A program made the translations under genes and the position numbers. Shown here one piece after another: positions 11,648 through 42,000 of a DNA stretch of 64,000 nt (position 1 is the stretch's first letter; every line of letters starts with the position of its first letter). The notes below the pieces were generated by a model. The model was given only the letters and a program-made list of their open reading frames with translations. It was not told where the DNA came from and searched no databases. The stretch lies in NCBI GenBank assembly GCA_022703425.1, contig JAKLDQ010000002.1, positions 12,876 through 76,875 of the forward strand, written 5' to 3'. The DNA is from Patescibacteria group bacterium. GTDB lineage: Bacteria; Patescibacteriota; Minisyncoccia; Minisyncoccales; Staskawiczbacteraceae.

Positions 11648-13225
11648 ATGACAGAAGATCAAAAAAGAGTATTGGAGAGACAGCTTTGGGCAGTGGCAAA
11701 TATTTTGCGCGGCAAGATGAATGCCGATGAATACAAGAACTATATTCTTGGTTTTATTTTTTATAAATATCTTTCAGAAAAGCTAGAGCACTACTGTGAT
11801 GAAAAGCTCTTGAATAGAGATAAAATAAAATTTTCGGAAATCAAAGAAAACACAAACGAGGGTAAAGAAGTACTGGAAGAGGTTAAAAAAGCCTGTGTTG
11901 GGCATTTGGGATTTTTCCTAAAGCCAACACAGCTTTTTTCTTATATTGTAAGAAAGGGTAAGGGAGAGATAAAAAATCAAGACAAATTCATAATAGAGGA
12001 TTTAAAAAATATATTAGATTCCATCGAAAAAACTTCAATGGGTACTGCGAGCGAAGATGATTTTAAGGGTTTGTTTGATGACGTTGATTTAACTTCAACA
12101 AAGCTTGGTTCTCGCGAAAATCAAAAGAATGAAACGATAACAGAAGTTTTATCTGAATTAGCTGGTATAGACTTTAAACTTGAGGATTCAAAAAGTGATC
12201 TTTTGGGCGATGCATACGAATATCTAATCGGCGAATTTGCCGCCGGTGCAGGCAAAAAGGGAGGAGAATTTTATACTCCAGCTCAAGTCTCTCGTTTATT
12301 AGCTAGGATTGTTGTAGATGATAAAAAACGCATAAAATCTGCGTATGATCCCACTTGTGGTTCGGGTTCACTTTTACTTCGTTTGGGCGAATTTACAGAA
12401 GTGGTTAATTATTTTGGTCAGGAATTAAACCCAACCACCTATAATCTCGCAAGAATGAATATGATTTTGCATGGAGTTCGTTTTGATAAATTTAGAATCT
12501 TGCAAGGAGACACTTTAAGGGAAGATATGCATGCGGATCTTAAGGCAGAAGTTATTGTTGCAAATCCTCCTTTTTCTGCAGAGTGGAAAGGAGAAAGTGA
12601 TCCTCAGTTGGTACACGATGATAGGTTTTCTCAGTACGGTCGGTTGGCGCCAAAAAGTGTCGCAGATTATGCTTTTGTGACACACATGCTTTACCATTTG
12701 TCAGACAATGGAATAATGGCTGTCGTTTTGCCTCATGGAGCCTTGTTCCGTGGTGGAGCAGAGGGACATATAAGAAAATACATTATTGAAAAGCAGAATT
12801 ATCTTGATGCTGTGATTGGCTTGCCATCAAACTTGTTTTATGGAACCTCAATTCCAGCTACGGTTTTAGTGTTTAAAAAATGCAGAAAAGATGACGAAGA
12901 TATCTTGTTTATTGATGCCTCAAAGGAATTTGAAAAAGGTAAAAATCAAAACAGGCTGACAAGCGAAAACATAGAAAAGATTTTTGACACTTATAATAAT
13001 CGCAAAGAGATTAAAAAATATTCTCACATGGCCAGTTTGCCTGAAATAAAAGAAAACGAATTCAATTTGAATATTCCGCGTTATGTAGATACTTTCGAGG
13101 AGGAAGCAGAAATTGACGTTGAGGCGGTGGCAAAGCAGCTAAAAGAATTAAATAAAGAAGAAGCTGATTTGCAAAATAAGCTTGAAAAATTTTGCAACGA
13201 ATTAAAAATAAATAAACCATTTTAA
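11648..13225 (+). CDS. hsdM: Type I restriction-modification system methyltransferase subunit
   Basis: HsdM N-domain. SAM motif DPTCGSGSLL and catalytic NPPF (VIVANPPFSAEW). Confidence 0.9.
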   Translation: MTEDQKRVLERQLWAVANILRGKMNADEYKNYILGFIFYKYLSEKLEHYCDEKLLNRDKIKFSEIKENTNEGKEVLEEVKKACVGHLGFFLKPTQLFSYIVRKGKGEIKNQDKFIIEDLKNILDSIEKTSMGTASEDDFKGLFDDVDLTSTKLGSRENQKNETITEVLSELAGIDFKLEDSKSDLLGDAYEYLIGEFAAGAGKKGGEFYTPAQVSRLLARIVVDDKKRIKSAYDPTCGSGSLLLRLGEFTEVVNYFGQELNPTTYNLARMNMILHGVRFDKFRILQGDTLREDMHADLKAEVIVANPPFSAEWKGESDPQLVHDDRFSQYGRLAPKSVADYAFVTHMLYHLSDNGIMAVVLPHGALFRGGAEGHIRKYIIEKQNYLDAVIGLPSNLFYGTSIPATVLVFKKCRKDDEDILFIDASKEFEKGKNQNRLTSENIEKIFDTYNNRKEIKKYSHMASLPEIKENEFNLNIPRYVDTFEEEAEIDVEAVAKQLKELNKEEADLQNKLEKFCNELKINKPF

Positions 13226-13227
13226 GC

Positions 13228-13575
13228 GTGGAACTAAAACAATTTGTAAAAAACGTTTTAAAAGATATAACAGAGGCGGTCGAAGAAACACGAAAAGAGT
13301 CATCTAGAGATATGCATTTGGATAGCTCAAAGGATCAACGCACCGTTGAGTTTGATGTTGCCGTAACGGCCGAAGATGTAACATCGGCTACTGGTAAAGC
13401 CGGGGTGAAGGTTTTTTCTGTTTTGGAGGGAGGAGGCGAAGTGGGGAAAGAGGTAAAAAGTTCATCGGTGAGCAGGATTAAATTTGGAGTTTCAGTAGAT
13501 AGATGGACTAAACAAGAAAATGCCGGTTTTCAAAATCAATTTCATCAATTAGACGATAGAAATAGTGCTAAATAA
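13228..13575 (+). CDS. Small protein resembling the trypco2 conflict-system domain
   Basis: GTG start 2 nt after the hsdM stop; its TAA overlaps the hsdS ATG (TAATG). The pattern is helix, then VEFDVAVTA, GKAGVKVFSVLEGGGEVGKE and SRIKFGVSV. Confidence 0.45.
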   Translation: MELKQFVKNVLKDITEAVEETRKESSRDMHLDSSKDQRTVEFDVAVTAEDVTSATGKAGVKVFSVLEGGGEVGKEVKSSSVSRIKFGVSVDRWTKQENAGFQNQFHQLDDRNSAK

Positions 13576-14852
13576 TGCCAACAAAGACTCCTATAAAATT
13601 AGAAACAAAAAAAGTCCCGAAACTCCGATTTCCGGGTTTTTCTGATTCATGGCAAAAGAAAAAGCTAAAAGATATTTTAGTTGAGCATAAGGCAAGAAAC
13701 GTCGGTAATAAATATGTTGAGGTATTTTCTGTCGCCAAAGAAAAGGGCGTTATAAATCAAATAGAACACCTCGGAAGATCATTTGCAGCAAAAAATTTAA
13801 CAAATTACAAAGTTGTTTTTCCAGACGATGTTATATATACGAAAAGTCCAACAGCCAATTTCCCCTATGGAATTATTAAGCAAAACAGGACCAACCGGAT
13901 TGGTATTGTGTCGACGCTCTACGCAGTTTATCGGCCACAAAATAAATACATAGGATATTTAATACACGAATATTTTTTATCTTGGGTACACACATATAAT
14001 TACTTGGTGCCATTGGTTCAAAAGGGAGCGAAAAACACCATTAATATTAGTAATAATGATTTCTTGAATGGCTCAATATTGTGTTTGCCGCTATCTGAAA
14101 AAGAGCAACAAAAGATTGCGGGGTTTTTGATTGTGGTGGATGAATGGATTGAGAATTTGAGGGAACAAAAAGAAACGCTGGAGCAATATAAAAAAGGAAT
14201 GATGCAAAATATCTTTTCTCAAAAAATCCGCTTCAAAGACGATAACGGTAAAGATTTCCCAAAATGGGAAGAGAAAAAAATAAAAGAAGTTGGGAAAATC
14301 TGCAACAGTAGTGTTGATAAAAAGATAATAGATGGGCAAGAGCTAGTTCTGTTGCTAAACTATATGGATGTCTATAAAAGAAACCGAATTTACAGTAAAG
14401 ATAAATTCCAAGAGGTCTCTGCAACACCTTTGCAAGTAAAATCATGCGATCTAATAGAGGGTGATATTTTATTTACACCAACCTCGGAAACTCCTGATGA
14501 TATAGGACATTCCGCTGTCGTAATGGAAAATTTAAACAAAGTATTATTTAGTTATCATCTGATTCGTTTAAGACCCGAGTCTATTGTCTTAAACAAAGAC
14601 TTTTCCGCTTATGCTTTCCATAATTTTTCATTTTATAAAAAATTATGGAGAATAGCGCAGGGAGCCACAAGATTTGTGTTGCCAAAAGATGGTTTTGAAA
14701 AAACTACAATAAATATTCCAAAATCCAGGGAGGAGCAGAAGAAAATCGCAGAGTTTTTGACTTCAATTGATAAAATAATAGAATCAAGGCAACAACAAAT
14801 CACCCAAGCCAAACAATGGAAAAAAGGCTTGATGCAACAGTTGTTTGTGTAA
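13575..14852 (+). CDS. hsdS: Type I restriction-modification specificity subunit
   Basis: Two target-recognition halves. Each ends in a conserved helical spacer (LREQKETLEQYKKGMMQNIFSQKIRF and QQQITQAKQWKKGLMQQLF). Confidence 0.85.
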   Translation: MPTKTPIKLETKKVPKLRFPGFSDSWQKKKLKDILVEHKARNVGNKYVEVFSVAKEKGVINQIEHLGRSFAAKNLTNYKVVFPDDVIYTKSPTANFPYGIIKQNRTNRIGIVSTLYAVYRPQNKYIGYLIHEYFLSWVHTYNYLVPLVQKGAKNTINISNNDFLNGSILCLPLSEKEQQKIAGFLIVVDEWIENLREQKETLEQYKKGMMQNIFSQKIRFKDDNGKDFPKWEEKKIKEVGKICNSSVDKKIIDGQELVLLLNYMDVYKRNRIYSKDKFQEVSATPLQVKSCDLIEGDILFTPTSETPDDIGHSAVVMENLNKVLFSYHLIRLRPESIVLNKDFSAYAFHNFSFYKKLWRIAQGATRFVLPKDGFEKTTINIPKSREEQKKIAEFLTSIDKIIESRQQQITQAKQWKKGLMQQLFV

Positions 14853-14854
14853 AT

Positions 14855-16258
14855 ATGTTTATTAAAGAACTTAAGATTAAAAATTTTAGATTATTTCCGA
14901 GTGATAGTGATTTTTCAATAGAAAATGTCAATGTCCCAGATTTACAAAATGAAGGAAGCGGTTTAAATTTATTTGTCGGTGAAAATGGATGCGGAAAAAC
15001 AACTCTGCTAGATGCTTTCGCTTTGCCTTTACTCCAATACAAAGCAGATAGTTTTTCTATTAATGACTTTAATAATCCCCAAGACAAATGCTATCTAAGT
15101 ATCTTATCTGAAGAGAATTTTACCGTCGCTAAAACCGTTCCAAGAAGTTATTTTGAGGCAAAAGGATTTTCGTTCGATGGCCGTGTTAGATCTAGGGAAA
15201 ATAGGATATATTTGTCATCCATTGTAGTTACAAATCAAGAATTTATACCAACAAACCCGGAAAGTTTTAAAGAGAATAGTCCTGACTTGAGAATAAAAGT
15301 CGATAATCCATGGGCGGGACCTAGATTTACCGAAAATGATATTGTTGTTTTAGACAAAAATCGAATAAACCAAACTCGTTCGGGAGTTTATAATTCCACA
15401 AGATTTGATCGGCTCTTGGAAGATTTTGATTTTCAATATATCAAGAACGGCAATATTGATGATTTGTGTGAAACTATAAAAAAATCTATACAGGGGGTAG
15501 AAAACGAATTTCTCAAAAAAGCGATGGTCAAATTTGAAGAAATTAGTAGGGAAAAAATTTCTTTGAATTATATAGATAATTGGCGACCACATAGCAAAGC
15601 TTTTCTAGGGACGCAAAAAGAAAACAAGCAACTTATACCTCTTAGTATGCTAGGTTCTGGATACGAAATGATTTTTTCTCTTATTTATTCTTTTTATCTT
15701 TCCCAGCAAAGCGGAAAACAGCTCATAATTTTAATCGATGAACCCGAATTGCATCTCCACCCTAAGATACAAGAAGATTTTGTCAAAATTTTATTAGAAT
15801 TTTCAAAGACTGCTCAGATTATTTTGACAACTCAATCTCCGCTTTTAGTAAAGCAGGTCATGTACAACGATAAGGCGAAAGTCAGTGTAATAAAGAAAGA
15901 TGTTAATAGGGTCTACATTTCTCCGCTAGACGATCGGCTTTTACCATATGTATCTGCTAACGAAATTAACTTCATAGCTTATGATTTTGCAACAGAAGAA
16001 TATCATAATGAACTTTACGAAGAATTGCAAATTAGAGAAAACAATAAGCGAGCCGCGCCATTATGCTTAAAGGATTTTGATCTACATTTTTTTCAAAAAG
16101 AAAAAGGGGAGATAGCAGATCGTCCGTACAACGGGAGTAGTAACCAAGTTAGTATTCACACGCATTTAAGAACCCAAATTCATCATCGGGGAACTTCTGG
16201 AAGACCAGATGCTGCAGAAATAGAAGCGTCAATAAAAAAAATGAGAACATACTTTTAG
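14855..16258 (+). CDS. ABC/SMC-like (AAA_15/21-type) ATPase with uncharacterised C-terminal domain, embedded between hsdS and hsdR
   Basis: Walker A GENGCGKTT, signature-like LSMLGSGYE, Walker B LIILIDEPELHLHP. The C-terminus contains SIHTHLRTQIHHRG. ATG at 14855, 2 nt after the hsdS stop. Confidence 0.75.
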   Translation: MFIKELKIKNFRLFPSDSDFSIENVNVPDLQNEGSGLNLFVGENGCGKTTLLDAFALPLLQYKADSFSINDFNNPQDKCYLSILSEENFTVAKTVPRSYFEAKGFSFDGRVRSRENRIYLSSIVVTNQEFIPTNPESFKENSPDLRIKVDNPWAGPRFTENDIVVLDKNRINQTRSGVYNSTRFDRLLEDFDFQYIKNGNIDDLCETIKKSIQGVENEFLKKAMVKFEEISREKISLNYIDNWRPHSKAFLGTQKENKQLIPLSMLGSGYEMIFSLIYSFYLSQQSGKQLIILIDEPELHLHPKIQEDFVKILLEFSKTAQIILTTQSPLLVKQVMYNDKAKVSVIKKDVNRVYISPLDDRLLPYVSANEINFIAYDFATEEYHNELYEELQIRENNKRAAPLCLKDFDLHFFQKEKGEIADRPYNGSSNQVSIHTHLRTQIHHRGTSGRPDAAEIEASIKKMRTYF

Positions 16259-16260
16259 CT

Positions 16261-19068
16261 ATGACGCATCAAAGCGAACAACAACTTGAGAAAGTTTTAA
16301 TCAGTCAGCTGCAGAGGCTGGGTTTTTCGGTTGTTGAAATTAAAGATTCCGACAAATTGATTTCTAATCTACGTGGGCAGTTGGAAAAATTTAATCAAAC
16401 AAAGTTTTCTGATGACGAATTCCTAAAAATTTTAAATCACTTAAATAAGGGCGATAGATTTGAAAAAGCCAAAACTTTGCGTGATAGGTTTGTATTGAAA
16501 AGAGATGACGGAACCGACTTTTGGGTTAGGTTTTTTAATATGGATCAGTGGTGTAAAAATGAATATCAGGTGACTAATCAAATTACTCAGGTGGGAAGAT
16601 ATGAAAACCGATATGATGTGACCTTATTGATAAATGGATTACCATTGGTGCAAATAGAGCTCAAACGCCGCGGAGTGGAAATGAAAGAAGCATTCAATCA
16701 AATACAAAGGTACCAAAAACACACATATTCGGGAACGCTTTTTGAATATATTCAAATGTTTGTTATATCTAATGGGGTAAATACAAAGTATTTTTCCAAC
16801 AATCCAAAACAAACATTCGAACAGACTTTTTATTGGACTGACGTAAATAACAAAAAAATAACAAAATTAGACGAATTTGCAAATGAATTTTTGGCAAAAT
16901 GTAATGTTTCTGAAATGATTGCTGAGTTTATTGTCTTGGCTGAATATTACAAAATTCCAATGATAATGAGGCCATATCAGTACTATGCGGTGAAGGCTAT
17001 TGAGGAAAGAGTAAAGGAGTCAGGTAAAAATGGATATATCTGGCACACAACTGGCTCAGGTAAAACTTTAACATCTTTTAAAACTAGCCAAGTGCTTTCA
17101 AGAATCCCCGAAGTTAAGAAGGTGCTTTTTGTGGTAGATAGAAAGGACCTCGATATTCAAACAACAAAGGAATTCAATTCTTTTTCCGATGGTTCCGTTG
17201 ACGGCACAGACAATACTCACCACTTAGTCGACCAATTGAAAGATAAGAGAAAAACAAAACTGATTGTAACAACAATACAAAAATTAGATATAGCTATCAG
17301 CAGAGAGTCTTATATCAAACAATTTAAGTATTTAGAAAACGAGAAGGTTATAATCATCTTTGATGAATGTCATCGAAGTCAATTTGGGCAAACACACGCA
17401 AGAATTAAGTCATTTTTCAAGGGTGCGCAACTTTTTGGATTCACCGGAACCCCAATTTTTGCTGATAATAATGTTGGTGGTGTTACAACAAAAGACGTTT
17501 TTGGGGATTGCCTACACAAATACATAATAACAAACGCAATTTCTGATAATAATGTGCTTGGGTTTGCGGTGGAATATGTTGGAAAATACAGACAAAAAGC
17601 GCCAGATACTCTGGATGCAGATATATTTGCTGACGAATTGGTCGAAAACATTAACCGAGAAGAAATTTTTGCAAGCGATGATCGCCTAAATAAAATTGCA
17701 GATTATATTTTGGCAGATTGGAAGAGGAAAACAAAAAACGGCAAGTTTAATGCCATTTTTGCAGTTTCAAGTATTGATGTTTTAAAAAAGTATTATACTC
17801 TGCTAAAAAGCAAGAAATCAGAAAATTTCAGAATTGCTACAATTTTTACTTATCACGCCAACGAAGATGAGAGTTCAGACATGCTTGATATTGATGTGTT
17901 TGCAGACGAGGGGAAACCAGAAAATAAGTATTCGAGGGAATTTTTAGAAGATTGTATTAAGGACTACAATAAGCTCTATTCTACAAACTATTCTACAGAA
18001 CGTTTTTATGATTATTACAAAAATTTACAAAAAAGGATTAAGGATAAAGAAGTTGATTTGGTGCTGGTGGTAAATATGTTTTTGACCGGCTTTGATAGTC
18101 CAAGACTGAATACATTGTATGTAGACAAAAATCTGAGATATCACGGATTAATTCAAGCATATTCAAGAACAAACAGGCTTTTAAATTCAGATAAACCTCA
18201 CGGGAACATAATTTCTTTTAGAAATTTAAAGCAAGCAACTGACAAAGCCTTGGCTCTTTTTGGTGACGAAAATGCAAAAGAAGTCGTTTTTAAGAAGCCA
18301 TACGAAGATCAAAAGAGGGATTTTGAAAATAAGTTGAGGGAATTAAGAGAAAAAGTTCCTACTGTAGATTCTGTTGACAGCCTGCAGGGCGAAGAAGAAC
18401 GTGCAGAATTTGTTAAAACCTTTAGAGATTTATTACGCATTAAGGCTTCTTTAGAAACTTTTGCAGAGTTTTCCTTCAGCGACTTAGGTATTTCAGAACA
18501 GGAATTCTACGACTATCAAAGTAAATATTTAGATATTTACGAGGAAAGGAAAAATCATGATCGAGAGAAAGAATCTATTTTAGACCAAATTGATTTTGAG
18601 CTTGAATTAACAATCCGCGACGTTATTGATTATGATTATATCATACGATTAATAGCTGGGCTTAAAAACATTAGTTCCAAAGCTCTTCGAGAAAAGAAAA
18701 CGGAAGAAATTTTGCGGTTGTTTGATAGGGATGCAAAATTACGCAAGAAGAAGGATTTGATTAGAAAATTTATTGAAGAAAATCTTCCCAAAATTGGCAA
18801 AGCCGATGATGTTGAAAAAGCATTTGGCGAGTTTTGGGAAAGTGAACGTTCGAAAAATTTAAAAGATTTAGCAAAATCAGAAAGTATTCCGGTTGAAAGT
18901 ATAGAAAAGTTAATTGGAGAATATCTATATACACAAAAAATTCCTCATGGAGACGACATCATAGAAATGTTGCCAGAAGAAAAACGACCCAGAATTATGC
19001 AAAGGCAAGGAGTTGTTGACCGTATCAGGAAAGCAATTAGAAATATAATAGATATATTTGAGTGGTAA
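16261..19068 (+). CDS. hsdR: Type I restriction enzyme endonuclease/translocase subunit
   Basis: Walker A TTGSGKT, DEAD box FDECHRSQ, helicase C-domain; 935 aa. Confidence 0.9.
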   Translation: MTHQSEQQLEKVLISQLQRLGFSVVEIKDSDKLISNLRGQLEKFNQTKFSDDEFLKILNHLNKGDRFEKAKTLRDRFVLKRDDGTDFWVRFFNMDQWCKNEYQVTNQITQVGRYENRYDVTLLINGLPLVQIELKRRGVEMKEAFNQIQRYQKHTYSGTLFEYIQMFVISNGVNTKYFSNNPKQTFEQTFYWTDVNNKKITKLDEFANEFLAKCNVSEMIAEFIVLAEYYKIPMIMRPYQYYAVKAIEERVKESGKNGYIWHTTGSGKTLTSFKTSQVLSRIPEVKKVLFVVDRKDLDIQTTKEFNSFSDGSVDGTDNTHHLVDQLKDKRKTKLIVTTIQKLDIAISRESYIKQFKYLENEKVIIIFDECHRSQFGQTHARIKSFFKGAQLFGFTGTPIFADNNVGGVTTKDVFGDCLHKYIITNAISDNNVLGFAVEYVGKYRQKAPDTLDADIFADELVENINREEIFASDDRLNKIADYILADWKRKTKNGKFNAIFAVSSIDVLKKYYTLLKSKKSENFRIATIFTYHANEDESSDMLDIDVFADEGKPENKYSREFLEDCIKDYNKLYSTNYSTERFYDYYKNLQKRIKDKEVDLVLVVNMFLTGFDSPRLNTLYVDKNLRYHGLIQAYSRTNRLLNSDKPHGNIISFRNLKQATDKALALFGDENAKEVVFKKPYEDQKRDFENKLRELREKVPTVDSVDSLQGEEERAEFVKTFRDLLRIKASLETFAEFSFSDLGISEQEFYDYQSKYLDIYEERKNHDREKESILDQIDFELELTIRDVIDYDYIIRLIAGLKNISSKALREKKTEEILRLFDRDAKLRKKKDLIRKFIEENLPKIGKADDVEKAFGEFWESERSKNLKDLAKSESIPVESIEKLIGEYLYTQKIPHGDDIIEMLPEEKRPRIMQRQGVVDRIRKAIRNIIDIFEW

Positions 19069-22438: not shown

Positions 22439-22542
22439 GCATTTTTGGCTGTTTTCTGGGAGATTGCTTGACCTCTTGACATCGATATATAATTATGTTA
22501 AGATAAATAAAGTAACCAATGCTCCTCAAAAGGGGCAAATCT

Positions 22543-23019
22543 ATGCAGAAAATAAACTACTCACAATTATATACGAAGCTTACCAAAGGTCTTCCCCAGA
22601 AAACCAGGGATATTTTTGACCGCAGATTTGGCGTAAAATCGGGAATTGCCGAAACGCTTGAAGCCATCGGCAAAGACCTTGGCATTACGAGGGAAAGAGT
22701 CCGCCAGATCGAGGAAGCCGGTTTTAACTTTGTAAGAAAACAGAACAAAGATGCTCTCGAAAAAATCTTTGCCGACTTTGCTTCTTACTTTAAAAACAGC
22801 GGAGGATTTAAAAAGGAGGAAACAGCTTTAGAAGAGCTCGGAGGCAAAAATGCAAAGCCGTATATTTTGTTTCTTTTGACTCTCGGAGACCAGTTTAAGA
22901 GAGTTTGTGAAAAGAAAGATTTTTATTCTTTCTGGTCTGTTTTGGAATCTCCCGAGCAGAAAGTAAAAGATACGCTGGCTTCATTGGTTGCAAATATCGA
23001 AGATCACGGAAGCTTTTAA
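22543..23019 (+). CDS. Sigma-70 region-4-like HTH protein (apparent N-terminal part of a split gene)
   Basis: LEAIGKDLGITRERVRQIEEAGF is a region 4.2-type HTH. ATG at 22543 follows aaagggg. It ends at a TAA inside a T4-A3 run. Confidence 0.6.
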   Translation: MQKINYSQLYTKLTKGLPQKTRDIFDRRFGVKSGIAETLEAIGKDLGITRERVRQIEEAGFNFVRKQNKDALEKIFADFASYFKNSGGFKKEETALEELGGKNAKPYILFLLTLGDQFKRVCEKKDFYSFWSVLESPEQKVKDTLASLVANIEDHGSF

Positions 23020-23066
23020 ACAAAGAAGATTTTTATGCCAAGTTCGCCTCTTATGACGGAAATTCT

Positions 23067-23561
23067 TTGGATTCATATTTTGAAGTTTCAAAGAAAATCC
23101 AGGAAAACAAAGACGGTGAAATCGGACTTGCCGACTGGCCTGAAATAAAACCGAGGGGAGTGAAAGACAAGGCATATCTGGTTTTCAGAAAACACGGAAA
23201 ACCTTTGCACTTTACAAAAGTTGCAGGGTTAATCGATGAACTGGAATACAATCAGCCGAACAAAAAAACATATCCGCAGACAGTTCACAACGAGCTTATC
23301 AAAGACAACAGGTTTGTTTTGGTGGGCAGAGGAACTTACGCTTTGTCAGAATGGGGATATGTTCCGGGAACTATCAAAGATATAATCGTCAAAGTTTTGT
23401 CTGACAAAAATTCAGCTTTAAACAAGGATGAAATCGTGAAAGAAGTGCTTTCACAGAGAATGGTTGCCAAAAACACCGTATTGATGAATCTTAATAACAG
23501 AAACTACTTTATTAGAGATAACGAAGGCAATTACCTTTTAAAGAAAACTCAGACAGCTTAA
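23067..23561 (+). CDS. HARE-HTH domain protein (apparent C-terminal part of a split gene)
   Basis: KAYLVFRKHGKPLHFTKVAGLI...TVHNELIKDNRFVLVGRGTYALSEWGY matches HARE-HTH (RpoE-delta-like). The track start is TTG. This frame stays open upstream across the stop of the previous ORF. Confidence 0.6.
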   Translation: MDSYFEVSKKIQENKDGEIGLADWPEIKPRGVKDKAYLVFRKHGKPLHFTKVAGLIDELEYNQPNKKTYPQTVHNELIKDNRFVLVGRGTYALSEWGYVPGTIKDIIVKVLSDKNSALNKDEIVKEVLSQRMVAKNTVLMNLNNRNYFIRDNEGNYLLKKTQTA

Positions 23562-23570
23562 TTTTAAAAA

Positions 23571-23591
23571 GCGCCCGAAAGGGCGCTTTTT
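23571..23591 (+). terminator. Rho-independent terminator
   Basis: gcgccc-gaaa-gggcgc followed by T5. Confidence 0.8.
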
Positions 23592-23635
23592 GCGTGTTGC
23601 TTTTGGCGTTTGCAGGGGTTATAATTATTTAAATT

Positions 23636-23857
23636 ATGGAAATATTTACATCATTATTAATTGCCCTAATTGTTGCAACGATTCTCTTTTATATTGTGTT
23701 TCTTTCGCTTGTATATTATTGGCATGAAACAAAGACAACTCTGCTTGTTGTTCCGCTGATTTTTACCTTTGATTTTTTTGCGACGGGTTTTTTCATAATT
23801 GCGATCGTTTCTTTGCTGGTGGAATATCTGCCCGAAATAATTAACTTTTTCGTATAA
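23636..23857 (+). CDS. Small 2-TM membrane protein
   Basis: Two long hydrophobic segments. It ends 5 nt upstream of the next gene. Confidence 0.55.
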   Translation: MEIFTSLLIALIVATILFYIVFLSLVYYWHETKTTLLVVPLIFTFDFFATGFFIIAIVSLLVEYLPEIINFFV

Positions 23858-23862
23858 CTTTT

Positions 23863-25257
23863 ATGGCAACGAAACTTCCTCCATGGCTATTTTGGATAGA
23901 GTGGGTCAAAAAAGTCGGATGGGTGCCCTTCTGGTGGGTTTATGCTTTCATAATTATTTTATGGATTCCATTTTTGCGTCCATGGTGGTGGGTGTTTTTG
24001 CCGATCATGCTCGTTTCCCAGCTTAAGGTTTTGTATTTATGGTGGATCGGCTGGGATTATTCTTATGCAAGCTCAAAATGGATTTATCTTGAACTGGTTC
24101 CTCCAAAAGAAGTGCTTACTCCTATTAAGGCAATGGAAGACGTCTTTGCTGTAATATGGCCGATTTATGACAGCGGAAACTGGAGAGAAAGGTGGATGGA
24201 GGGGGAATTAAACAACACTCCCTTCTGGATGTCGTGGGAAATTGTAAGCATCGAGGGAAGGATACATTTTTATCTGAGAATTCTAACTTCTCATAGGGGA
24301 GCAATTGAGACTGCGATTTACGGAGCGTATCCCGACATTGAAATAAGAGAAGTTACAGATTCCTTCAAGCTTGTTCCAAAAAATATTCCAAACGAAGAAT
24401 GGGATTTGTACGGCGAAGACTTTGTTTTGGCAAGGCCCGCGGCTTATCCTTTAAAAACATACGAGAAATTCTTCGAACCTCAGGGAGAAAGAATTTCTGC
24501 AGAAGAAAAAAGAATTGATCCGATGAGTTCTTTGCTTGAACTGATGGCGCGCCTGGGTCCCGGAGAAAATTTCTGGTTGCAGTACATTTTAATGCCGATT
24601 CTTGATTATGATGAACCCGAATGGAGAAAAGAGGGAGCAGCGATTGTCACAAAACTTTCAAAACGTCCGGAGAAAAAAGAGCCCACATTCCTGGAGGATC
24701 TTGGTTATGTTTTTAGACAGCTAATTATGGGGCCGGACAAAGAGGGATCGGGAGAGGGCGCAAAATACAGCTGGACGCCGATTGCAAAAACGGAAACTGG
24801 AGAAAGAGAAATGGTGCTGACGCCGGGAGAAAGGGAAATGATAACTGAAATAGAAAATAAAATGAGAAAGCCCGCTTACCGTGTAAACATCAGGGGCTTG
24901 TATATTGCAAAAAGAGAAAACTGGAAACCTTCAAACAGGGTTTTGTCCAGATCATATTTCGCACACTTTGGACTGGATAATTTAAATCGTCTTGGATTTA
25001 GCGGGTTAACAAGGCCAAAAGTGCACTACATAATGAGAAAGAGGAGGGCATTTTTGAGAGCAAGAAGAATGCTGAGAAATGCAGTATTAAGATTTCCGCC
25101 CATGTTTCCTGACAGGAAAAGCGTTTGCGCGATATTGAACTCTGAAGAACTTGCAACATTGATTCACTTCCCGATCAAGATGACGGGCGTTGCCGGACCG
25201 ACTGTCGGCAGGATTGAGTCCAAGAAAGCCGGACCTCCGCCAAATTTGCCCACTTAG
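23863..25257 (+). CDS. Trp-rich N-terminal membrane protein, function unknown (partner of VirD4-like ATPase)
   Basis: N-terminus WLFWIEWVKKVGWVPFWWVYAFIIILWIPFLRPWWWVFLPIML gives 2-3 TM helices. A soluble domain follows, ending ELATLIHFP...GPPPNLP. Confidence 0.6.
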   Translation: MATKLPPWLFWIEWVKKVGWVPFWWVYAFIIILWIPFLRPWWWVFLPIMLVSQLKVLYLWWIGWDYSYASSKWIYLELVPPKEVLTPIKAMEDVFAVIWPIYDSGNWRERWMEGELNNTPFWMSWEIVSIEGRIHFYLRILTSHRGAIETAIYGAYPDIEIREVTDSFKLVPKNIPNEEWDLYGEDFVLARPAAYPLKTYEKFFEPQGERISAEEKRIDPMSSLLELMARLGPGENFWLQYILMPILDYDEPEWRKEGAAIVTKLSKRPEKKEPTFLEDLGYVFRQLIMGPDKEGSGEGAKYSWTPIAKTETGEREMVLTPGEREMITEIENKMRKPAYRVNIRGLYIAKRENWKPSNRVLSRSYFAHFGLDNLNRLGFSGLTRPKVHYIMRKRRAFLRARRMLRNAVLRFPPMFPDRKSVCAILNSEELATLIHFPIKMTGVAGPTVGRIESKKAGPPPNLPT

Positions 25258-25271
25258 CGTATTAATAACTC

Positions 25272-27203
25272 ATGGCAGAAAACAACGATATAGCATATTT
25301 CGGACTTACATCTTTCCGAAATCAAAAACAAAAATTTGGAATAAGACCCGACGACAGGCGGAGGCATTTTTATTGCATTGGAAAAACCGGAATGGGAAAA
25401 TCAAACCTGATGGAAAATATGGCAATTCAGGATATACAGGCGGGAAGAGGAATTGCTTATATAGATCCGCACGGAGAGGGAGCAGAAAAGCTTCTGGACT
25501 TTGTGCCTTCAAACAGAATAAATGATGTTGTGTTTTTTAATCCCGCTGACATTGACTATCCCATTGCATTTAACGTAATGGAAAAAGTTGATTTCAGATT
25601 TCGTCATTTGGTTGCCGGCGGGCTGATGGGAGTTTTCAAAAAAGTCTGGCCCGATGTCTGGTCTGCCAGAATGGAATATATTTTAAACAATTCAATTTTG
25701 GCGTTGCTTGAATATCCCGATGCCACGCTTCTCGGCGTGAACAGGATGCTTGCCGATGTTGAATACAGGCAGAAAGTTGTGGACAAAATCACAGATCCGA
25801 TTGTAAAATCTTTTTGGACGACAGAATATGCAAGATATACGCAAAGGTACGAAATCGAGGCAACAGCCGCCATCCAGAATAAAGTCGGGCAGTTCATTTC
25901 AAATCCGCTTATCAGAAATATTATCGGCCAGACCAAGTCTACAATAAATATGAGAGATATAATGGACAAGGGAAAAATATTTATTATGGATCTTTCAAAA
26001 GGAAGAATAGGAGAAGACAACTCGAGACTGCTTGGCGCGTTGCTTATTACAAAACTTCAGCTGGCCGCCATGTCGCGCGTTGATGTTCCGGAAGATGAAA
26101 GAAAAGATTTTTATATGTATGTTGATGAGTTCCAGAATTTTGCCACCGAATCTTTTGCAAACATTTTGTCTGAGGCGAGAAAATACAGATTAAATCTGAC
26201 TCTTGGGCATCAGTATATAAACCAGATGGACGAAATTGTCAGAGACGCGGTTTTTGGAAACGTTGGCACGCTGGTTGTTTTCAGGGTTGGCGCAGAAGAT
26301 GCAGAATTTCTGGAAAGGGAATTTTCACCCGAATTCACCGCAGAAGATTTGGTGAATCTGCCAAAGTATAATGTTTATTTAAAGCTGATGATAGACGGCA
26401 TAGCCGGTCATCCTTTTTCTGCTGAAACTCTGCCTCCGCCCGCTCCGTCGGAAAAATCCAACAGAGATAAAATTATCAAAGCTTCCCGGGAAAGATATGG
26501 AGTTTCGCGGGATATCGTGGAAGAAAAAATCACCCGCTGGACAGGGTTGGGAGAAAAGGAAGAAGGTGACTCTGTTAGAAAAGAGGCAAGGCCTGCGCAA
26601 TCGCGTTCGCAAGTGATGCGTCCTCAAAACAATTTAGACGGCCAGGCAACCCTGCATGAAGCGATTTGCTCAAGTTGCGGAAAGCAGACAAAAGTTATAT
26701 TTGAACCTGAAAAAGGCAGGCCTGTCTTTTGCAAGTCATGTCTCAAAAAAATGAAAGGCGAGTCAGAACAAAAAAATGAAGAGCATGCCAATGCAACAGT
26801 CTCACAGCCGTCAAAAATCGAAAACATTCCTTTTCACGTTCCAAAAACCAGAAACGAACAACCACATCACGAGAAAAAGAGAAAAGAAATCAACCTTTCG
26901 GATTTGAGAAAAGCGCTTGAAGAATCCCTTGAAAAAAAGGACGCAAAAGAGGACGAAGAACAAGAAGAAGAAATTGGAGAGAGCCCGGTAAAGCAGGAGG
27001 TCTCCGAAAAAAAATTGCCCGAACCTCCAAAGCCGGGTAAAGAGAACAACAAGTCTACAAATGAGGAATTGCAAAAAATAATTGAACAGGAAAAAATAGC
27101 AGACGAAGTTCAAAAACAGGAACCGGTTGAAGACGCTCAAAATAAAAACAACGGTAACGCCAAAAAAGGTGTTATAAAGCCGGGAGAAAGAATAAAATTT
27201 TAA
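25272..27203 (+). CDS. VirD4/TraD/TraG-like (type IV coupling protein-like) P-loop ATPase with C-terminal zinc ribbon and acidic/basic tail
   Basis: Walker A GKTGMGKS, Walker B-like FYMYVDEFQNF, ARKYRLNLTLGHQY. Zinc ribbon CSSCGKQTKVIFEPEKGRPVFCKSC. K/E-rich tail. Confidence 0.7.
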   Translation: MAENNDIAYFGLTSFRNQKQKFGIRPDDRRRHFYCIGKTGMGKSNLMENMAIQDIQAGRGIAYIDPHGEGAEKLLDFVPSNRINDVVFFNPADIDYPIAFNVMEKVDFRFRHLVAGGLMGVFKKVWPDVWSARMEYILNNSILALLEYPDATLLGVNRMLADVEYRQKVVDKITDPIVKSFWTTEYARYTQRYEIEATAAIQNKVGQFISNPLIRNIIGQTKSTINMRDIMDKGKIFIMDLSKGRIGEDNSRLLGALLITKLQLAAMSRVDVPEDERKDFYMYVDEFQNFATESFANILSEARKYRLNLTLGHQYINQMDEIVRDAVFGNVGTLVVFRVGAEDAEFLEREFSPEFTAEDLVNLPKYNVYLKLMIDGIAGHPFSAETLPPPAPSEKSNRDKIIKASRERYGVSRDIVEEKITRWTGLGEKEEGDSVRKEARPAQSRSQVMRPQNNLDGQATLHEAICSSCGKQTKVIFEPEKGRPVFCKSCLKKMKGESEQKNEEHANATVSQPSKIENIPFHVPKTRNEQPHHEKKRKEINLSDLRKALEESLEKKDAKEDEEQEEEIGESPVKQEVSEKKLPEPPKPGKENNKSTNEELQKIIEQEKIADEVQKQEPVEDAQNKNNGNAKKGVIKPGERIKF

Positions 27204-27204
27204 T

Positions 27205-28239
27205 ATGAAAACAATAAAAGACGCAGACGTCACAGGCAAGAAAGTTTTAGTGAGATGCGATTTCAATGTTCCCTTGGACGAAAACGGGAACATTTTAGAT
27301 AATTTCAGAATAAAAGAAACCGCTCCGACAATAAATTATTTAGCCGATAAAGGCGCACGAGTCATTTTAATGTCTCACCTTGGAGATCCGGAGGGATTTT
27401 CTGTGAATCTCACTTTAGACAAGGTAAAAGAATCTTTGTCGCAAATCCTTGGCAGAGAAATAAAAAAAGCAAATGACTGCACGGGCGAGGAGGTAAAAAA
27501 GATGACTCAATCCCTGCTGGATGGAGAGATTTTAATTTTAGAGAACTTGAGATTTAACAAAGAAGAGGCCGAAAACAATCAGGAATTTGCAAAACAGCTT
27601 GCCGGTCTTGCCGATATTTATATAAACGAGGCGTTTTCTGTCTGCCACAGAGAACATGCCTCAATTGCCAGTGTTCCTTTCTATTTGCCTGCATATGCAG
27701 GTTTTTTGCTTGAGAAAGAGATTGTAAGCCTGGAAAGAGTTTACAAAGATCCGGAAAAGCCCATGATTGCCATAATCGGAGGGAAAAAAGTTGAAACAAA
27801 AATAAAAGTCATAGACAGGTTGTCAGAAAGATCAACTTTTGTTATAATTAGCGGCCTGATAAAAAAAGAGGCAGATGAAAAGAAAATCCCTTTTATTCTT
27901 CCCGAAAAAATTGTCGCTCCAACAGGAAATTTATCAGATTTTGATATCAGCGATGAAACAATTGAATTATTCAAAGAAAAAATATTGACAGCTAAAACCG
28001 TATTATGGAACGGGCCTTTTGGAAAGACAGAAGATGAGCAGTATTGCAAAGGCACGCTTGCTATTGCCAATGCTATTGTCGAGAGCGGGGCGTTTTCTTT
28101 GGCAGGAGGGGGAGAAACAATTGAATTTCTGGACAGGCACGGACTTACTGAAAAATTTTCGCATGTATCAACGGGTGGAGGCGCAATGCTGTCATTTTTA
28201 GCCGGGGAAGAACTGCCAGGATTGAAGGCATTAAATTAA
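27205..28239 (+). CDS. pgk: Phosphoglycerate kinase (short form, 344 aa)
   Basis: VRCDFNVP, SHLGDP and STGGGAMLSFL motifs. Confidence 0.85.
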   Translation: MKTIKDADVTGKKVLVRCDFNVPLDENGNILDNFRIKETAPTINYLADKGARVILMSHLGDPEGFSVNLTLDKVKESLSQILGREIKKANDCTGEEVKKMTQSLLDGEILILENLRFNKEEAENNQEFAKQLAGLADIYINEAFSVCHREHASIASVPFYLPAYAGFLLEKEIVSLERVYKDPEKPMIAIIGGKKVETKIKVIDRLSERSTFVIISGLIKKEADEKKIPFILPEKIVAPTGNLSDFDISDETIELFKEKILTAKTVLWNGPFGKTEDEQYCKGTLAIANAIVESGAFSLAGGGETIEFLDRHGLTEKFSHVSTGGGAMLSFLAGEELPGLKALN

Positions 28240-28242
28240 CTT

Positions 28243-29394
28243 ATGTATAAGATAAAAAACATTGAGAAGGCCGCCGAGAGAATCAGGCAGGCCGTTAATA
28301 ATAATGAAAGGATAATAATTTACGGCGATTCGGATTTGGACGGAATTTCATCTGCTGTAATAGTTGAAGAAGCAATTAAAAATTTGGGCGGGCAGGTGTG
28401 CCGCGTCTTTTTCCCTGACAGGGAAAAAGACGGCTACGGGGTAAATCTCAAAGCGCTGGAGCTTTTAAAAAAAGATGCTCCGGCTCTTTTTATAACTTTG
28501 GATCTGGGTATCGGAAATGTAAAAGAAGCCGAGCTTGCAAAAAAAATCGGATTTGAAATGATAATCGTTGACCATCACGAGCCTCTCGACGGAGTTCCTG
28601 ATGTTTACACAATAGTTGATCCAAAGCAAAAAGACGACCCTTATCCTTTCAAACAGTTCGCAAACGTTGGAATTGCCTTCCGGCTCTGCGAAGAACTGCT
28701 CGGCAAAAATATGTCGCCCACGTTAAGAAACAGCTTTTTGGAGCTTGCCGCACTGGGAACAATTGCCGACATGGTTCCCCAAATCGAAGAAAACCAAAAA
28801 ATAATAGAAGAAGGGCTAAGGTCATTAAAGAATACATTCAGGCCGGGATTAAAAGTTTTTTGGGATATATTCGGCAAAGGCGCGATATTGGACGGTTCGC
28901 TGTTAAAAATAATTTCTGCGTTAAATGCCTCAGAGAGCGAAACATTTGAAAATGATTCTTATATGCTGTTAACCAGCGGCTCTGCAGAAAGATGCCGTGA
29001 GCTTGCCCAAAAGCTCGTTGATAAAAACCAGTACAAACAACAGCAGGTTAAAAATATAGTCCATGAAATAGAAAGAAGAATTTCACAAAAACCAAAGGAG
29101 CCGATTATTTTTGAGGGCGATCCGGCATGGCGCCTGACTCTTGCGGGTTCTGTCGCCTCGATTATTTCGCAAAAATATGAAAAGCCCACATTTGTTTTTA
29201 AAAAGGGCGACTCGGAATCATGCGGTTCTGTAAGAAATCCGAAACATACAAATTCGGTTGAGGCGATGAAAACCTGCGATGGAATTTTAATAACATACGG
29301 CGGACACACGCAGGCATCGGGCTTCCGGATAAAAAATGAAAATCTCGAAGAATTTAAAAAAGGGTTAAGCCGGTATTTTCAAAAGAAAAAGTAA
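28243..29394 (+). CDS. DHH-family phosphoesterase (RecJ/NrnA-like)
   Basis: DHH motifs YGDSDLDGISS, DLG, VDHHEP and GGHTQASG. Confidence 0.75.
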   Translation: MYKIKNIEKAAERIRQAVNNNERIIIYGDSDLDGISSAVIVEEAIKNLGGQVCRVFFPDREKDGYGVNLKALELLKKDAPALFITLDLGIGNVKEAELAKKIGFEMIIVDHHEPLDGVPDVYTIVDPKQKDDPYPFKQFANVGIAFRLCEELLGKNMSPTLRNSFLELAALGTIADMVPQIEENQKIIEEGLRSLKNTFRPGLKVFWDIFGKGAILDGSLLKIISALNASESETFENDSYMLLTSGSAERCRELAQKLVDKNQYKQQQVKNIVHEIERRISQKPKEPIIFEGDPAWRLTLAGSVASIISQKYEKPTFVFKKGDSESCGSVRNPKHTNSVEAMKTCDGILITYGGHTQASGFRIKNENLEEFKKGLSRYFQKKK

Positions 29395-29409
29395 AATGAA
29401 ACTAAAAAA

Positions 29410-29435
29410 GCCCCGCGTTCGCGCGCGGGGCTTTT
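29410..29435. terminator. Bidirectional rho-independent terminator
   Basis: gccccgcg / cgcggggc 8-bp GC stem with an A-run upstream and a T-run downstream. It sits between convergent genes. Confidence 0.8.
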
Positions 29436-29804: not shown

Positions 29805-29869
29805 ATTAGTAAATTATATACCAAATTTGAACAAACAAAAAACAGGGCCTTAAACCCTGTCCTTTGGTG

Positions 29870-30252
29870 CCTCAGCAAGACCATAAGCCGAATTCTGTTT
29901 TATGTGATCATCTGTCTGTCCTCGGCATTACTGCCGGAATCAAGCGAACTACTTTTAACCCTTCAACAAGCTTCAAGGCAAGCAACCAATTGGTTTTTTG
30001 TTTACCCTGAGCTTGCCGAAGGGCTTTGTTCTTGCGCCCGATAAGGATTTAGCCGTTTCATTTTTACATTGCTGTAAAACTATTCCCTGAAGGAATGCCA
30101 GGCCTTTCAGCCTGTGCCGTTTCTGTTCGCACCTCGCGCATTACTGCGGACGGCTGTTAGCCGCTATCTTTTTAGATCCCTTGCGGGAAATGGGTGTTCG
30201 GACTTTCCTCCCTGCCTACATTACATAGGAGAGCGATCACTCATCTTGCTAA
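29870..30252 (-). ncRNA. rnpB: RNase P RNA (bacterial type A-like)
   Basis: The reverse complement reads AGCAAGATGAG...GGGAGGAAAGTCCGAACACC...ACAGAATTCGGCTTATGGTCTTGCT. This covers the conserved P4 strands and P1 pairing (AGCAAGA/TCTTGCT). A terminator hairpin follows at about 29838-29866. Ends are approximate. Confidence 0.85.
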
Positions 30253-39062: not shown

Positions 39063-42000
39063 ATGAAGTTTAAGCTATTCATCACCATTGGTTTGGCAGT
39101 TGTTTTGTTGTGTTCTGCACTGGGTGCAAGCGCCATGACAGATGCCGAACGACAGGCATTTATTGCGCAATTGCAGGCGCAAATAGTGCAATTACAGCAA
39201 CAGCTTACTCAGTTGTTGGCACAGCCAACGCAGGTTTCTGCGACACCTCAGACAACAACGACGGCCGATGATTCCTGGTGTTACACGTTCAGATACAATC
39301 TTGGCACGACAAACACGGGTTTTGGTGTAACAAACCTAAAAATTGCTCTGCAAAGGGAGGGATTCAGCACGGCCGGAGATGAACAGGGCGTTTATGGCAC
39401 CGCAACGATAGCAGCAGTAAAGGCATTCCAGGAAAAATATTCTTCTGAAATTCTGAGGCCATATGGATTAACCGTGGGAACAGGATATTTTGGAACTTCA
39501 TCAAGGACAAAAATGAATACGCTGTACGCTTGTGCAGATGATCCGATAGCCCCTGTTATTACAGACGGCACATGCGGATGGGAATGCGGAGTGTGGAGCG
39601 CTTGCGCGGGCGGACAGCAGACGAGAACCTGCACAAAGATCAGAGACTGTGCAACGGGAGCTACACCAAGTCCTGCAACTCAGCAATCATGCAGGCCTGC
39701 TGAACAAAACTGCACTCCATACTGGACATGCCAGGCATGGAGCACTTGTGTCGGCGGATCACAGACACGTCTTTGCTACGACTCACAGATGTGCGGAACA
39801 ACATCAGGAAAACCTGTTACAGAAAGAAGTTGCGAGGCTCCGAGATCTTGTTCTCCAAGCTGGACATGCGGAGCGTGGAGTGCTTGCAACACAAACGGAT
39901 TGCAAACAAGAACTTGTACTGACTCAAACGGATGCGGAACGACTTTGGGCAAGCCGGCAGTTTCACAGGCGTGCGGATCAACAACTCCAAATAATGAAAT
40001 TGTTATCTCAAATTGCAATTGGGATTGCGGAGCATGGAGCGCTTGCGCGAGCGGAAGGCAGACAAGAACATGCGTAGCTTCTATGCCAGCTTATACTTCT
40101 GGAGGGCAGGTAAATTGGTTAACAGACGGTAATTGCTATGATGAAACAGGCCATCTTATAAGGGCTGTTGTTACAAGAGAATGCGGGGCGTCGTGCACTT
40201 CAAAATGGATGTGTTCGCAGTGGGGTGTATGTTCTGGAAACTATGGAAACGAATCAAAGAGCAGAGTTTGTATGGACTTGAACGGATGTGATACTCCTAC
40301 AAATCCGCCCGCAACTACAACAAGAGAGGGATGCACATATAACTGTGCGCCGAACTGGCAGTGCACAGGGTGGTCATCATGCAATGGCGGACAACAAACA
40401 AGAATTTGTACGGATTTAAATAATTGTGGAGGAACACAGCAAAGGCCTGAAACAACGCAGTCATGTTCAACATCATGCACTCCAAGCTGGCAGTGTTCGG
40501 GATGGGGAACATGCGGAAATATCGATACAACGGCAACAAGTTCGTTTCAGGGCATCGGCACTCAATCAAGAGTTTGTTATGATTCAAGCAATTGCGGAAT
40601 TACTACTAACAAGCCGCACACTTTGCAGAGTTGCACCGCAAGCTGTACGCCTGTATGGGTCTGTTCGAATTGGAGCACTTGCACATATGGATCACAAAGC
40701 AGAAGCTGTACCGACACATCACATTGTTCAGATGCGAGAGCAGGATATTTCTTGTCAAAACCCGCGACATCACGATCATGCGGAGGATCTGTTGTGGTTG
40801 ATCCCGTCTGCACTCCAAACTGGCAGTGCGGAATATGGGGAAATTGCATAAATAATCAGCAAACGAGAACATGCACTGATGCAAGCGGATGCGGAGTTTC
40901 AACGGGCGCTCCGTCGTTAACCAGGTCTTGCACAGCATGCGTTCCTGATTGGAGATGCGGAGACTGGACACAATGCATAAACGGAAGGCGGTCAAGAATC
41001 TGCACTGACGCAAATAGTTGCAATACAACAGAGGGCAGGCCAGCGACTGATGATCTTTCCTGCGCATCATGCACACCCAATTGGGTTTGTACAAATTGGT
41101 CTTCCTGTGTTTACGGACAGCAGACAAGAACATGCACGGACTCAAATCATTGCGGATATAACACGGGCAAACCTGCAGAAGCGCAGGGATGCGCTTTGTC
41201 ATGCACTCCAAACTGGCAGTGCACAGGATGGACTTCCTGCAGCAATAATCAGCAAACGAGAACATGCACTGATGCAAGCGGATGCGGAACGACTTTTGGG
41301 AAACCGATTGAGAGTCAATCATGCTCAACAACAAGCTGTGTTCCTACATGGCAATGTACGAATTGGTCTGCCTGTTCGAGCGGCGCAGAAAGAAGAACGT
41401 GTACAGATATCAATCATTGCGGAGGAACAGAAAACAAACCGTCTGAAGTTCGTACGTGCACGGCAGCTGGAACTTGCAGCAGAGACTGGAGATGCAGTTT
41501 GTGGAGTCCTTGCATAAACAATCAGCAGACAAGAACTTGCACACCAAATAATTATTGTCCTCCGCTAAGTATCATTACAGATCCGACCTCGCCTAACACC
41601 ACACAGTCTTGTTCGGTAAACTGCAATCCTTTGTGGCAATGCAGTGCATGGTCAGGGTGTTCCTCTAGCAATCAGCAGACAAGAACATGCACAGATTATT
41701 ATCACTGCGGAGTTGATACTTCGATCCCTCCGCTGGTGCAATCATGCTGCACTCCAAACTGGCAGTGCACAGGGTGGGGAACTTGTATTAACGGAAACCA
41801 GACAAGAACATGCACGGATTTGAGCGGATGCCCGAATGCAACAAGGCCGGCAACAACTCAAACCTGCGGATCCACCTGTATTCCAAACTGGCAGTGCGGA
41901 GCGTGGAATAATTGTTTCGCAAATCAGCAGACAAGAACTTGCACAGACACAAATAATTGCGGTGTTACAACAAACAGGCCGGCATTGTCGCAGTCGTGCA

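Follow-up and report, generated by a model that had tools for sequence, protein, structure and literature searches.

The locus described here lies within a 64,000-nucleotide stretch (the window) of contig JAKLDQ010000002.1 from a Patescibacteria group bacterium (GCA_022703425.1), and consists of three open reading frames (ORFs) on the plus strand. These specify a 73 amino acid (aa) protein (23636–23857) with two strongly hydrophobic segments, predicted to form a transmembrane (TM) hairpin; a 464 aa protein (23863–25257) whose homologs carry PF26449/DUF8128; and a 643 aa ATPase (25272–27203). The genes are separated by 5 and 14 nucleotides (nt), respectively, and the closest named homologs of their products are in Candidatus Staskawiczbacteria and other Patescibacteria. 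An intrinsic terminator-like hairpin on the same strand (23565–23592; GCGCCC-GAAA-GGGCGC, a 12-bp stem with 6 GC pairs, then a T-run) closes the upstream gene and precedes the module. The original prediction for this DNA, made without database searches, had described three tightly spaced plus-strand genes behind a terminator, the last of them related to the type IV coupling proteins (T4CPs); this layout, and all of the motifs quoted with it, were located.

The ATPase

The 643 aa protein contains a Walker A motif (GKTGMGKS; aa 37–44, nucleotides 25380–25403), a Walker B region (YVDEFQNF; aa 283–290, nucleotides 26118–26141) which aligns to that of TrwB, and an LGHQY motif at aa 311. No hydrophobic segment was found in it and, since Walker A begins at residue 37, it has no N-terminal TM domain. 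Its Pfam matches, all above threshold, are to TrwB_AAD_bind (E-value=9.6e-8; 31.7 bits against a cut-off of 20.5), DUF87 (E-value=1.6e-6; 28.9 bits) and TraG-D_C (E-value=8e-6; 26.2 bits against a cut-off of 22). TrwB and DotL are its top sequence matches in the PDB. A profile of 35 diverse orthologs was compared with TrwB using hhalign and aligned with it (94%, E-value=1.1e-7, 269 columns, approximately 22% identity) from before Walker A to past Walker B, the similarity being weak in the region of a putative helical insertion. NCBIfam returned, besides a CxxC-x17-CxxC domain, only weak P-loop matches to TraD and CedD; the full-length CedD model was far from its cut-off (28.4 against 600 bits), the match being confined to residues 12–83 around the P-loop.

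An AlphaFold2 (AF2) model of the ATPase, built on a shallow alignment, had a predicted local distance difference test score (pLDDT) of just 56. In this low-confidence model a helix-only stretch at about residues 96–232 lies between core strands, and the highest Foldseek matches were DotL, Cag-beta, HerA and TrwB, with HerA below the T4CPs; the C-terminal domain of VirB4 (4ag5) ranked 33.

Residues G37, K38, G40, G42 and K43 of Walker A, and D285, E286, F287 and Q288 of Walker B, are invariant in the 35 diverse orthologs, as are many further residues of the protein, and identity among diverse Patescibacteria orthologs is 49–70%. Judged on its sequence, the protein is a soluble, active-looking ATPase of the T4CP type (VirD4/TrwB/TraG family) which lacks a membrane domain, in agreement with the kinship originally proposed.

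Downstream of the ATPase core is a treble-clef zinc ribbon of the form CxxC-x17-CxxC (aa 466–490, nucleotides 26667–26741; zf_Tbcl_2, above its Pfam threshold, E-value=1.4e-13; TIGR04272, E-value=6.6e-14). Its sequence is CSSC-x17-CKSC, includes RPVFC, and is the sole such motif in the window. By strict pattern it occurs in approximately 60% of the orthologs, and Pfam adds further ones. The protein ends in a low-complexity tail of 148 residues rich in glutamate and lysine (aa 496–643, nucleotides 26757–27200; 20% E, 16% K), with a pLDDT below 50 over most of its extent and a length that differs between orthologs.

The closest non-Patescibacterial relative of the ATPase that was found is a stand-alone ATPase domain of 395 aa (40% identity) specified by an alphaproteobacterial plasmid of Sulfitobacter mediterraneus (NZ_CP081110.1, 99994–101181), and may reflect horizontal transfer. 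As a lone ATPase domain amid transposases it was dropped as a source of informative context.

The DUF8128 protein and its fused relatives

The DUF8128 family comprises 1309 clusters at 50% identity, and a full-text search of the literature revealed no mention of it. In the 464 aa protein, 13 of the first 70 residues are tryptophan, and hydropathy peaks indicate a Trp-rich TM hairpin at about aa 18–63 (nucleotides 23914–24051). This is followed by a soluble alpha/beta domain (aa 70–464, nucleotides 24070–25254) which ends in ELATxxHFP and PPxNLP motifs. The AF2 model (pLDDT 81.7) contains one long helix, from residue 7 to 70, and then alpha/beta domains. Basic residues follow the hairpin in many members and the fused homologs described below are cytoplasmic, which suggests that the soluble domain is cytoplasmic too. 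The PPxNLP motif (nucleotides ~25230–25254) is conserved at the extreme C-terminus of our alignment of the family, A1, even after a long variable linker; since it stays terminal despite that linker, it suggests a tethered docking peptide.

By sequence the protein matched no solved structure, either as a single sequence or as profile A1. A Pfam scan of all 38 members of A1, at E-values up to 10 and with a library that lacks PF26449, gave scattered noise. Its relatives were found instead among phage and plasmid proteins in which it is joined to an ATPase. In phrog_5156, a family of 824 positions, positions 79–288 correspond to residues 123–350 of the DUF8128 protein (E-value=1.2e-8) and positions 406–805 to residues 25–421 of the ATPase (E-value=1.3e-63). 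Single proteins of this type include gp156 of phage G (825 aa), gp91 of CP-51 (911 aa) and ORF201 of 0305phi8-36, and a fused protein of 833 aa (WP_003349917) is specified by plasmid pBM69 of Bacillus methanolicus. Profile A1 aligned with residues 29–320 of gp156 (hhalign 98.1%, E-value=1.3e-13) and with residues 53–313 of the pBM69 protein (98.7%, E-value=3.3e-16), both alignments passing through the ELATxxHFP signature, and the DUF8128 model matched the predicted structure of gp156 in a Foldseek search of BFVD (E-value=6e-18). The C-terminal halves of gp156 and the pBM69 protein match the ATPase (for gp156, 27.7% identity by tblastn, E-value=6e-41). A tblastn search of plasmids with the DUF8128 soluble domain, at E-values up to 0.01, returned nothing, and its homology to plasmid proteins is seen at the profile level only.

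Because one family, phrog_5156, covers both proteins in the manner of a Rosetta-stone fusion, the DUF8128 and ATPase genes can be read from their sequences as the two halves of one ancestral protein of approximately 820 aa, split in the inter-domain linker. In the window a stop codon and 14 nt stand between the two ORFs, and they are separate genes in all 76 of the related loci in which they adjoin. The original prediction had taken the 464 aa protein for an independent channel partner of the ATPase; the phrog_5156, hhalign and Foldseek results replace that role with the one of a detached N-terminal domain which carries its own anchor.

The genes that accompany the fused proteins point to DNA transfer. 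In pBM69 the fused gene is followed by those for a replication-relaxation protein, conjugal transfer proteins, an 860 aa ATP-binding protein, and a lytic transglycosylase/peptidase, a cell-wall hydrolase; this is a Gram-positive conjugation cluster. In CP-51 a gene with a Replic_Relax domain lies after the fused gene and one for an actin-like partition protein before it. The orf200 and orf201 products of 0305phi8-36 have been described as the relaxase and the TM-less coupling ATPase of a phage "DNA translocation operon", for which membrane attachment would need a separate protein and whose deletion had no effect in the laboratory (Pathria et al. 2012; PMC3357382). By analogy, these contexts would tie the family as a whole to DNA transfer. 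In phage G, gp155 (1196–2845 of locus L085), a VirB4-type ATPase with AAA_10 and P-loop_TraG matches, is encoded directly upstream of the fused gp156. Plasmid pLS20 was considered as the closest plasmid system and rejected, its T4CP (gene 48) having two N-terminal TM segments and its relaxase gene not being adjacent.

The Patescibacterial pair and the Bacillus plasmid and phage ATPases (pBM69, gp156, gp91, orf201 / SPO1 gp27.4) are homologous in both halves and share the same domain order. They differ in that the latter are single polypeptides of 825–911 aa, whereas the former is specified by two genes. The N-terminal domain of the 0305phi8-36 protein is reported to lack a TM helix (PMC3357382), whereas the DUF8128 protein possesses a TM hairpin. 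The fused genes adjoin Replic_Relax relaxases and, in pBM69, also type IV secretion system (T4SS) genes, neither of which was detected near the Patescibacterial pair. A zinc ribbon and a charged tail further distinguish the Patescibacterial motor from the plasmid and phage proteins, and it is specified by chromosomal core genes. With the classical T4CPs (TrwB of R388, VirD4, TraD, TraG, DotL and Cag-beta) the ATPase shares its type of nucleotide-binding domain, Walker A and B motifs and Pfam families, and the low-confidence model hints at a helical insertion like theirs. Those proteins contain their own N-terminal TM domain and no DUF8128-like domain, whereas here the TM hairpin is on the separate DUF8128 protein. 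Classical T4CPs are also encoded with relaxase and/or T4SS genes; none were detected in this window.

Conservation and genomic neighbourhood

In a scan with one genome per species, DUF8128 was found to be encoded in at least 548 species genomes. The informatively named carriers are Patescibacteria, namely Nealson-, Gribaldo-, Moran-, Terry-, Portnoy-, Lipton-, Niyogi-, Magasanik-, Uhr- and Buchananbacteria. Eighty-two loci were examined, two of which end at a contig edge; in 76 of the remaining 80 informative loci the ATPase gene lies directly after that for DUF8128, which upholds the functional tie proposed earlier between the ATPase and the 464 aa membrane protein. The original prediction had made conservation of all three genes as a unit its own test, and in this respect it failed. 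The 73 aa protein has only 6 detectable homologs, including Staskawiczbacteria A2904_02065, which adjoins the orthologous pair, and positional analogs are present at approximately 6 of the 82 loci. Those at L002–L004, L006 and L008, and no others, share a W-x-E loop and a YTFxF motif. The 73 aa protein is a recent, lineage-restricted accessory.

The recurrent gene order is secD, secF, a gene with sigma-70 region 4 and HARE-HTH domains, DUF8128 and T4CP. In the window the third of these is frameshift-split (22519–23019 and 23067–23561, plus strand; Sigma70_r4, E-value=2.6e-10; HARE-HTH, E-value=1.5e-12), being one gene for approximately 330 aa with an apparent 1-nt frameshift near 23010–23020, and it is separated from the DUF8128 gene by the terminator and the small ORF. 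An intact version (320–390 aa, approximately 340 aa) lies directly upstream of DUF8128 in 66 loci with a median gap of 26 nt. Its N-terminal domain matches region 4 structures of RpoD/SigA at 1e-19 and its C-terminal domain weakly resembles the N-terminal domain of RNA polymerase delta; the protein may be a Patescibacteria-specific factor associated with RNA polymerase. It was also considered as an equivalent of a relaxase or accessory protein, an idea that was dropped, its profile having no similarity to the Replic_Relax protein of CP-51.

On the other side of the module, pgk (27205–28239, plus strand; Pfam PGK) begins 1 nt past the ATPase stop codon, and a gene for a RecJ/NrnA-like DHH/DHHA1 phosphoesterase (28243–29394, plus strand; Pfam DHH) begins 3 nt past pgk. 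Because of these gaps, and since the next strong plus-strand terminator is at 29406–29435, both genes are probably co-transcribed with the module. The three ORFs stand as originally delimited, and the transcription unit probably continues beyond 27203. In one large subgroup of approximately 25 related loci (L006–L031), pgk, DHH and RNase H genes follow the T4CP gene with gaps of 1–3 nt, so that nucleic-acid-degrading enzymes are probably co-transcribed with the motor there. A gene for ComEC (Competence and DUF4131 domains) is found two to three genes past the T4CP gene, some 4–6 kb after DUF8128, in 7 loci (L032, L034, L042, L043, L045, L067 and L070), where a minus-strand gene and mnmA intervene.

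The window was annotated with Pfam, which was applied to almost every ORF of 150 aa or more. Nearly all of the genes are on one strand, and the annotated neighbours have housekeeping functions (SecA, MurB, SecD, SecF, PGK, MurJ, ClpP, LepA, RsgA, PheS, GyrB and NusG). The same is true of the annotated recurrent neighbours across the 80 related loci, where several neighbour families are unannotated. No VirB4, VirB6, VirB8 or relaxase was detected in the window with Pfam, in keeping with the original prediction that no T4SS genes adjoin the module, and a few ORFs with no match could hide divergent components. No integrase was detected among the Pfam-annotated ORFs. The GC content of the module (0.40–0.42) resembles that of the rest of the window, with no compositional shift, and a scan of viral contigs gave one weak, partial match to a C-terminal fragment only. 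Because of the fixed housekeeping order, the unremarkable base composition and the near-absence from viral contigs, we conclude that the pair is a vertically inherited core locus and not a mobile element.

VirD4-type T4CPs have recently been surveyed across the phylum. In that study (Quinonero-Coronel et al. 2025; PMC12102498), homologs are present in 2,918 of 3,035 Patescibacteria genomes, with 5,713 copies in total, of which only 148 lie near virB4, and VirB4 itself occurs in 2,417 genomes; the authors suggest that these T4CPs may have been exapted. The ATPase of the window and its orthologs are very probably these orphan proteins, which likewise are of the VirD4 type, occur in nearly all genomes of the phylum and hardly ever lie close to virB4. 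The searched parts of the study contain no mention of a DUF8128 partner, a split, a plasmid or phage fusion, or synteny with secDF. VirD4, T4CP and FtsK are likewise unmentioned in the main text of Wang et al. 2023 (PMC10633639).

Other features of the window include the hairpin at 29406–29435, a strong bidirectional terminator 3' of the gene for the DHH phosphoesterase; a bacterial class A RNase P RNA on the minus strand (29868–30252; 109 bits) with a near-consensus promoter-like site beside it (30291–30262); and a type I restriction-modification system (hsdM, hsdS and hsdR; 11648–19068), 4.5 kb upstream of the module, in which an inserted ATPase gene (AAA_15/AAA_21, AbiEii-like) separates hsdS from hsdR. 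Two large proteins of 1324 and 571 aa (39063–43037 and 2317–4032) have PG_binding_1, a peptidoglycan-binding domain, as their sole recognizable domain.

A probable split coupling-type motor and its alternatives

Taken together, these results make it probable that 23863–25257 and 25272–27203 encode a single hexameric ATPase of the coupling-protein type, divided between two polypeptides. The Trp-rich hairpin would stand in for the N-terminal membrane anchor of classical T4CPs, and the DUF8128 protein would tether the ATPase ring to the cytoplasmic side of the membrane. There, powered by ATP, the hexameric ring would bind and transport a polymer, which is most likely nucleic acid or nucleoprotein, with the zinc ribbon and the charged tail helping it to bind or move this cargo. 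The motor might pass the polymer to the T4SS that is present elsewhere in most of these genomes, work with another channel, or act alone.

Several points weigh against this reading. In 4 of the 80 informative loci (L003, L004, L062 and L078) a different gene follows DUF8128, pgk in L003 and a Cys-rich 204 aa ORF in L004, so that in some genomes the pair can be separated or the ATPase lost. A fraction of the ATPase orthologs is without the zinc ribbon. The ATPase model is poor (its pLDDT is given above), and the helical insertion and the fold ranking taken from it are only indicative. The TM topology of the DUF8128 protein is deduced solely from hydropathy and charge distribution. Contact between this protein and the ATPase, like the direction of transport, is something that we infer, and the cargo and channel are guesses, since neither a relaxase nor VirB4 or VirB6 turned up in the window. 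Finally, a T4CP homolog of Southlakia epibionticum, which may or may not be orthologous to this pair, is reported to be dispensable for epibiotic growth (PMC12102498).

Four alternatives follow, the most plausible first. One is the view of the original prediction, which had suggested a minimal translocation device, possibly at a host–symbiont interface. Such a self-sufficient translocon, in which the TM segments of the 73 and 464 aa proteins form the channel and the ATPase drives DNA or protein through it independently of a T4SS, would account for the tight spacing of the three genes and for the lack of detected T4SS genes across 64 kb. Six DUF8128 hairpins could, moreover, form a 12-helix ring like that proposed for the TM domain of TrwB. 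The phylum-wide counts, 2,918 genomes with T4CP homologs against 2,417 with VirB4 (PMC12102498), also favour it. However, the 73 aa protein is absent from most loci with the pair, and in plasmids and phages the DUF8128 soluble domain is an intramolecular part of cytoplasmic ATPases that lack TM segments, hence not a channel protein. Nor is a two-helix anchor alone known as a substrate conduit, and we regard such a translocon as unlikely. A cytoplasmic or membrane-proximal motor for segregation, division or repair of the chromosome, akin to FtsK or HerA and perhaps acting with the sigma4/HARE-HTH protein, seems more doubtful. It would suit the very high conservation, the housekeeping synteny, the DNA-binding-type gene directly upstream in 66 loci, the DUF87 and HerA matches and a zinc ribbon suggestive of nucleic-acid binding. 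Yet Pfam and NCBIfam gave no match in the ATPase to the FtsK_SpoIIIE motor, its gamma domain or a HAS barrel, no FtsK structure was among the fold matches, and no NurA gene was found near the ATPase gene in the Pfam annotation of the window; of HerA, the central ATPase domain (DUF87) alone is shared. The nearest relatives by sequence and by fold are conjugative coupling proteins, the upstream gene looks related to RNA polymerase and not to segregation, and FtsK itself is reported in at least some Patescibacteria, being mentioned in TM7x transcriptome papers.

The VirB4 family shares the general plan, with an alpha/beta domain at the N-terminus and then an ATPase, in approximately 820 aa (TrwK of R388 has 823 aa, the fused homologs about 825 aa). 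In some systems a small two-TM protein, VirB3, attaches VirB4 to the membrane. A second VirB4-like ATPase, with DUF8128 as its N-terminal domain and the pair energizing assembly of a pilus or T4SS, is suggested by the Foldseek search of the PDB with the DUF8128 model, in which the top six matches were all to TrwK/VirB4 (prob 0.90–0.99), and by a match of this model to the predicted structure of phage G gp155 (E-value=5e-6). The six matches are to one protein at a TM-score of just 0.32, and this modelled, fold-level likeness is a lead, not a result. By sequence the VirB4 signal is nil: profile A1 found nothing in TrwK/VirB4 with hhalign, the ATPase has no Pfam match to AAA_10 or CagE_TrbE_VirB, and its profile, which matches TrwB, aligns with TrwK through the P-loop alone (3% probability), in line with the low rank of 4ag5. 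In pBM69, furthermore, the separate 860 aa ATP-binding protein may be the VirB4, judging from its size and position. We consider a role of this kind very unlikely. Still harder to credit is a locus without a function for the host, left behind by an integrated conjugative element, a prophage or a defence island. The fused relatives in plasmids and phages, the restriction-modification system upstream and PADLOC matches of the ATPase to mad8 (7e-16) and HerA (3.5e-8) could be so explained, but the pair is present in at least 548 species genomes, with the ATPase identities given above and every catalytic residue intact, in a fixed housekeeping neighbourhood where neither an integrase or relaxase in the window nor a compositional shift was detected. 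A defence function was likewise rejected, the PADLOC scores reflecting general ATPase similarity and being contradicted by conservation and context.

The split coupling-type motor can be taken a step further. The DUF8128–T4CP pair might be the core cytoplasmic-membrane motor of the phylum for the import of host-derived RNA or DNA through a T4SS or pilus, with the zinc ribbon as its grip and the DHH phosphoesterase and RNase H processing the cargo. This extension is speculative and, as we see it, improbable; if true, import of host nucleic acid would fill a step left unresolved by a 2026 preprint on host-RNA feeding (10.64898/2026.06.21.733656).

The Patescibacteria account for much of the diversity of bacteria. 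They rely on their hosts to provide nucleotides, lipids and amino acids, and little is known of how macromolecules cross their membrane. What is new here is that an orphan ATPase, with its orthologs in at least 548 species genomes, has a fixed partner in DUF8128; that this partner appears to be the N-terminal domain of the ancestral protein, detached from the ATPase and now bearing a membrane anchor; that conjugative plasmids of Bacillus and phage "DNA translocation operons" specify the undivided version as their coupling ATPase; and that the Patescibacterial pair behaves like a housekeeping locus inherited vertically. A DUF family is thereby given a concrete structural role, and a core Patescibacterial gene pair is tied to DNA-transfer machinery. 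The two proteins are now a defined target for work on the acquisition or export of nucleic acids in these bacteria, be it by genetics, by assays of interaction or by cryo-electron tomography.

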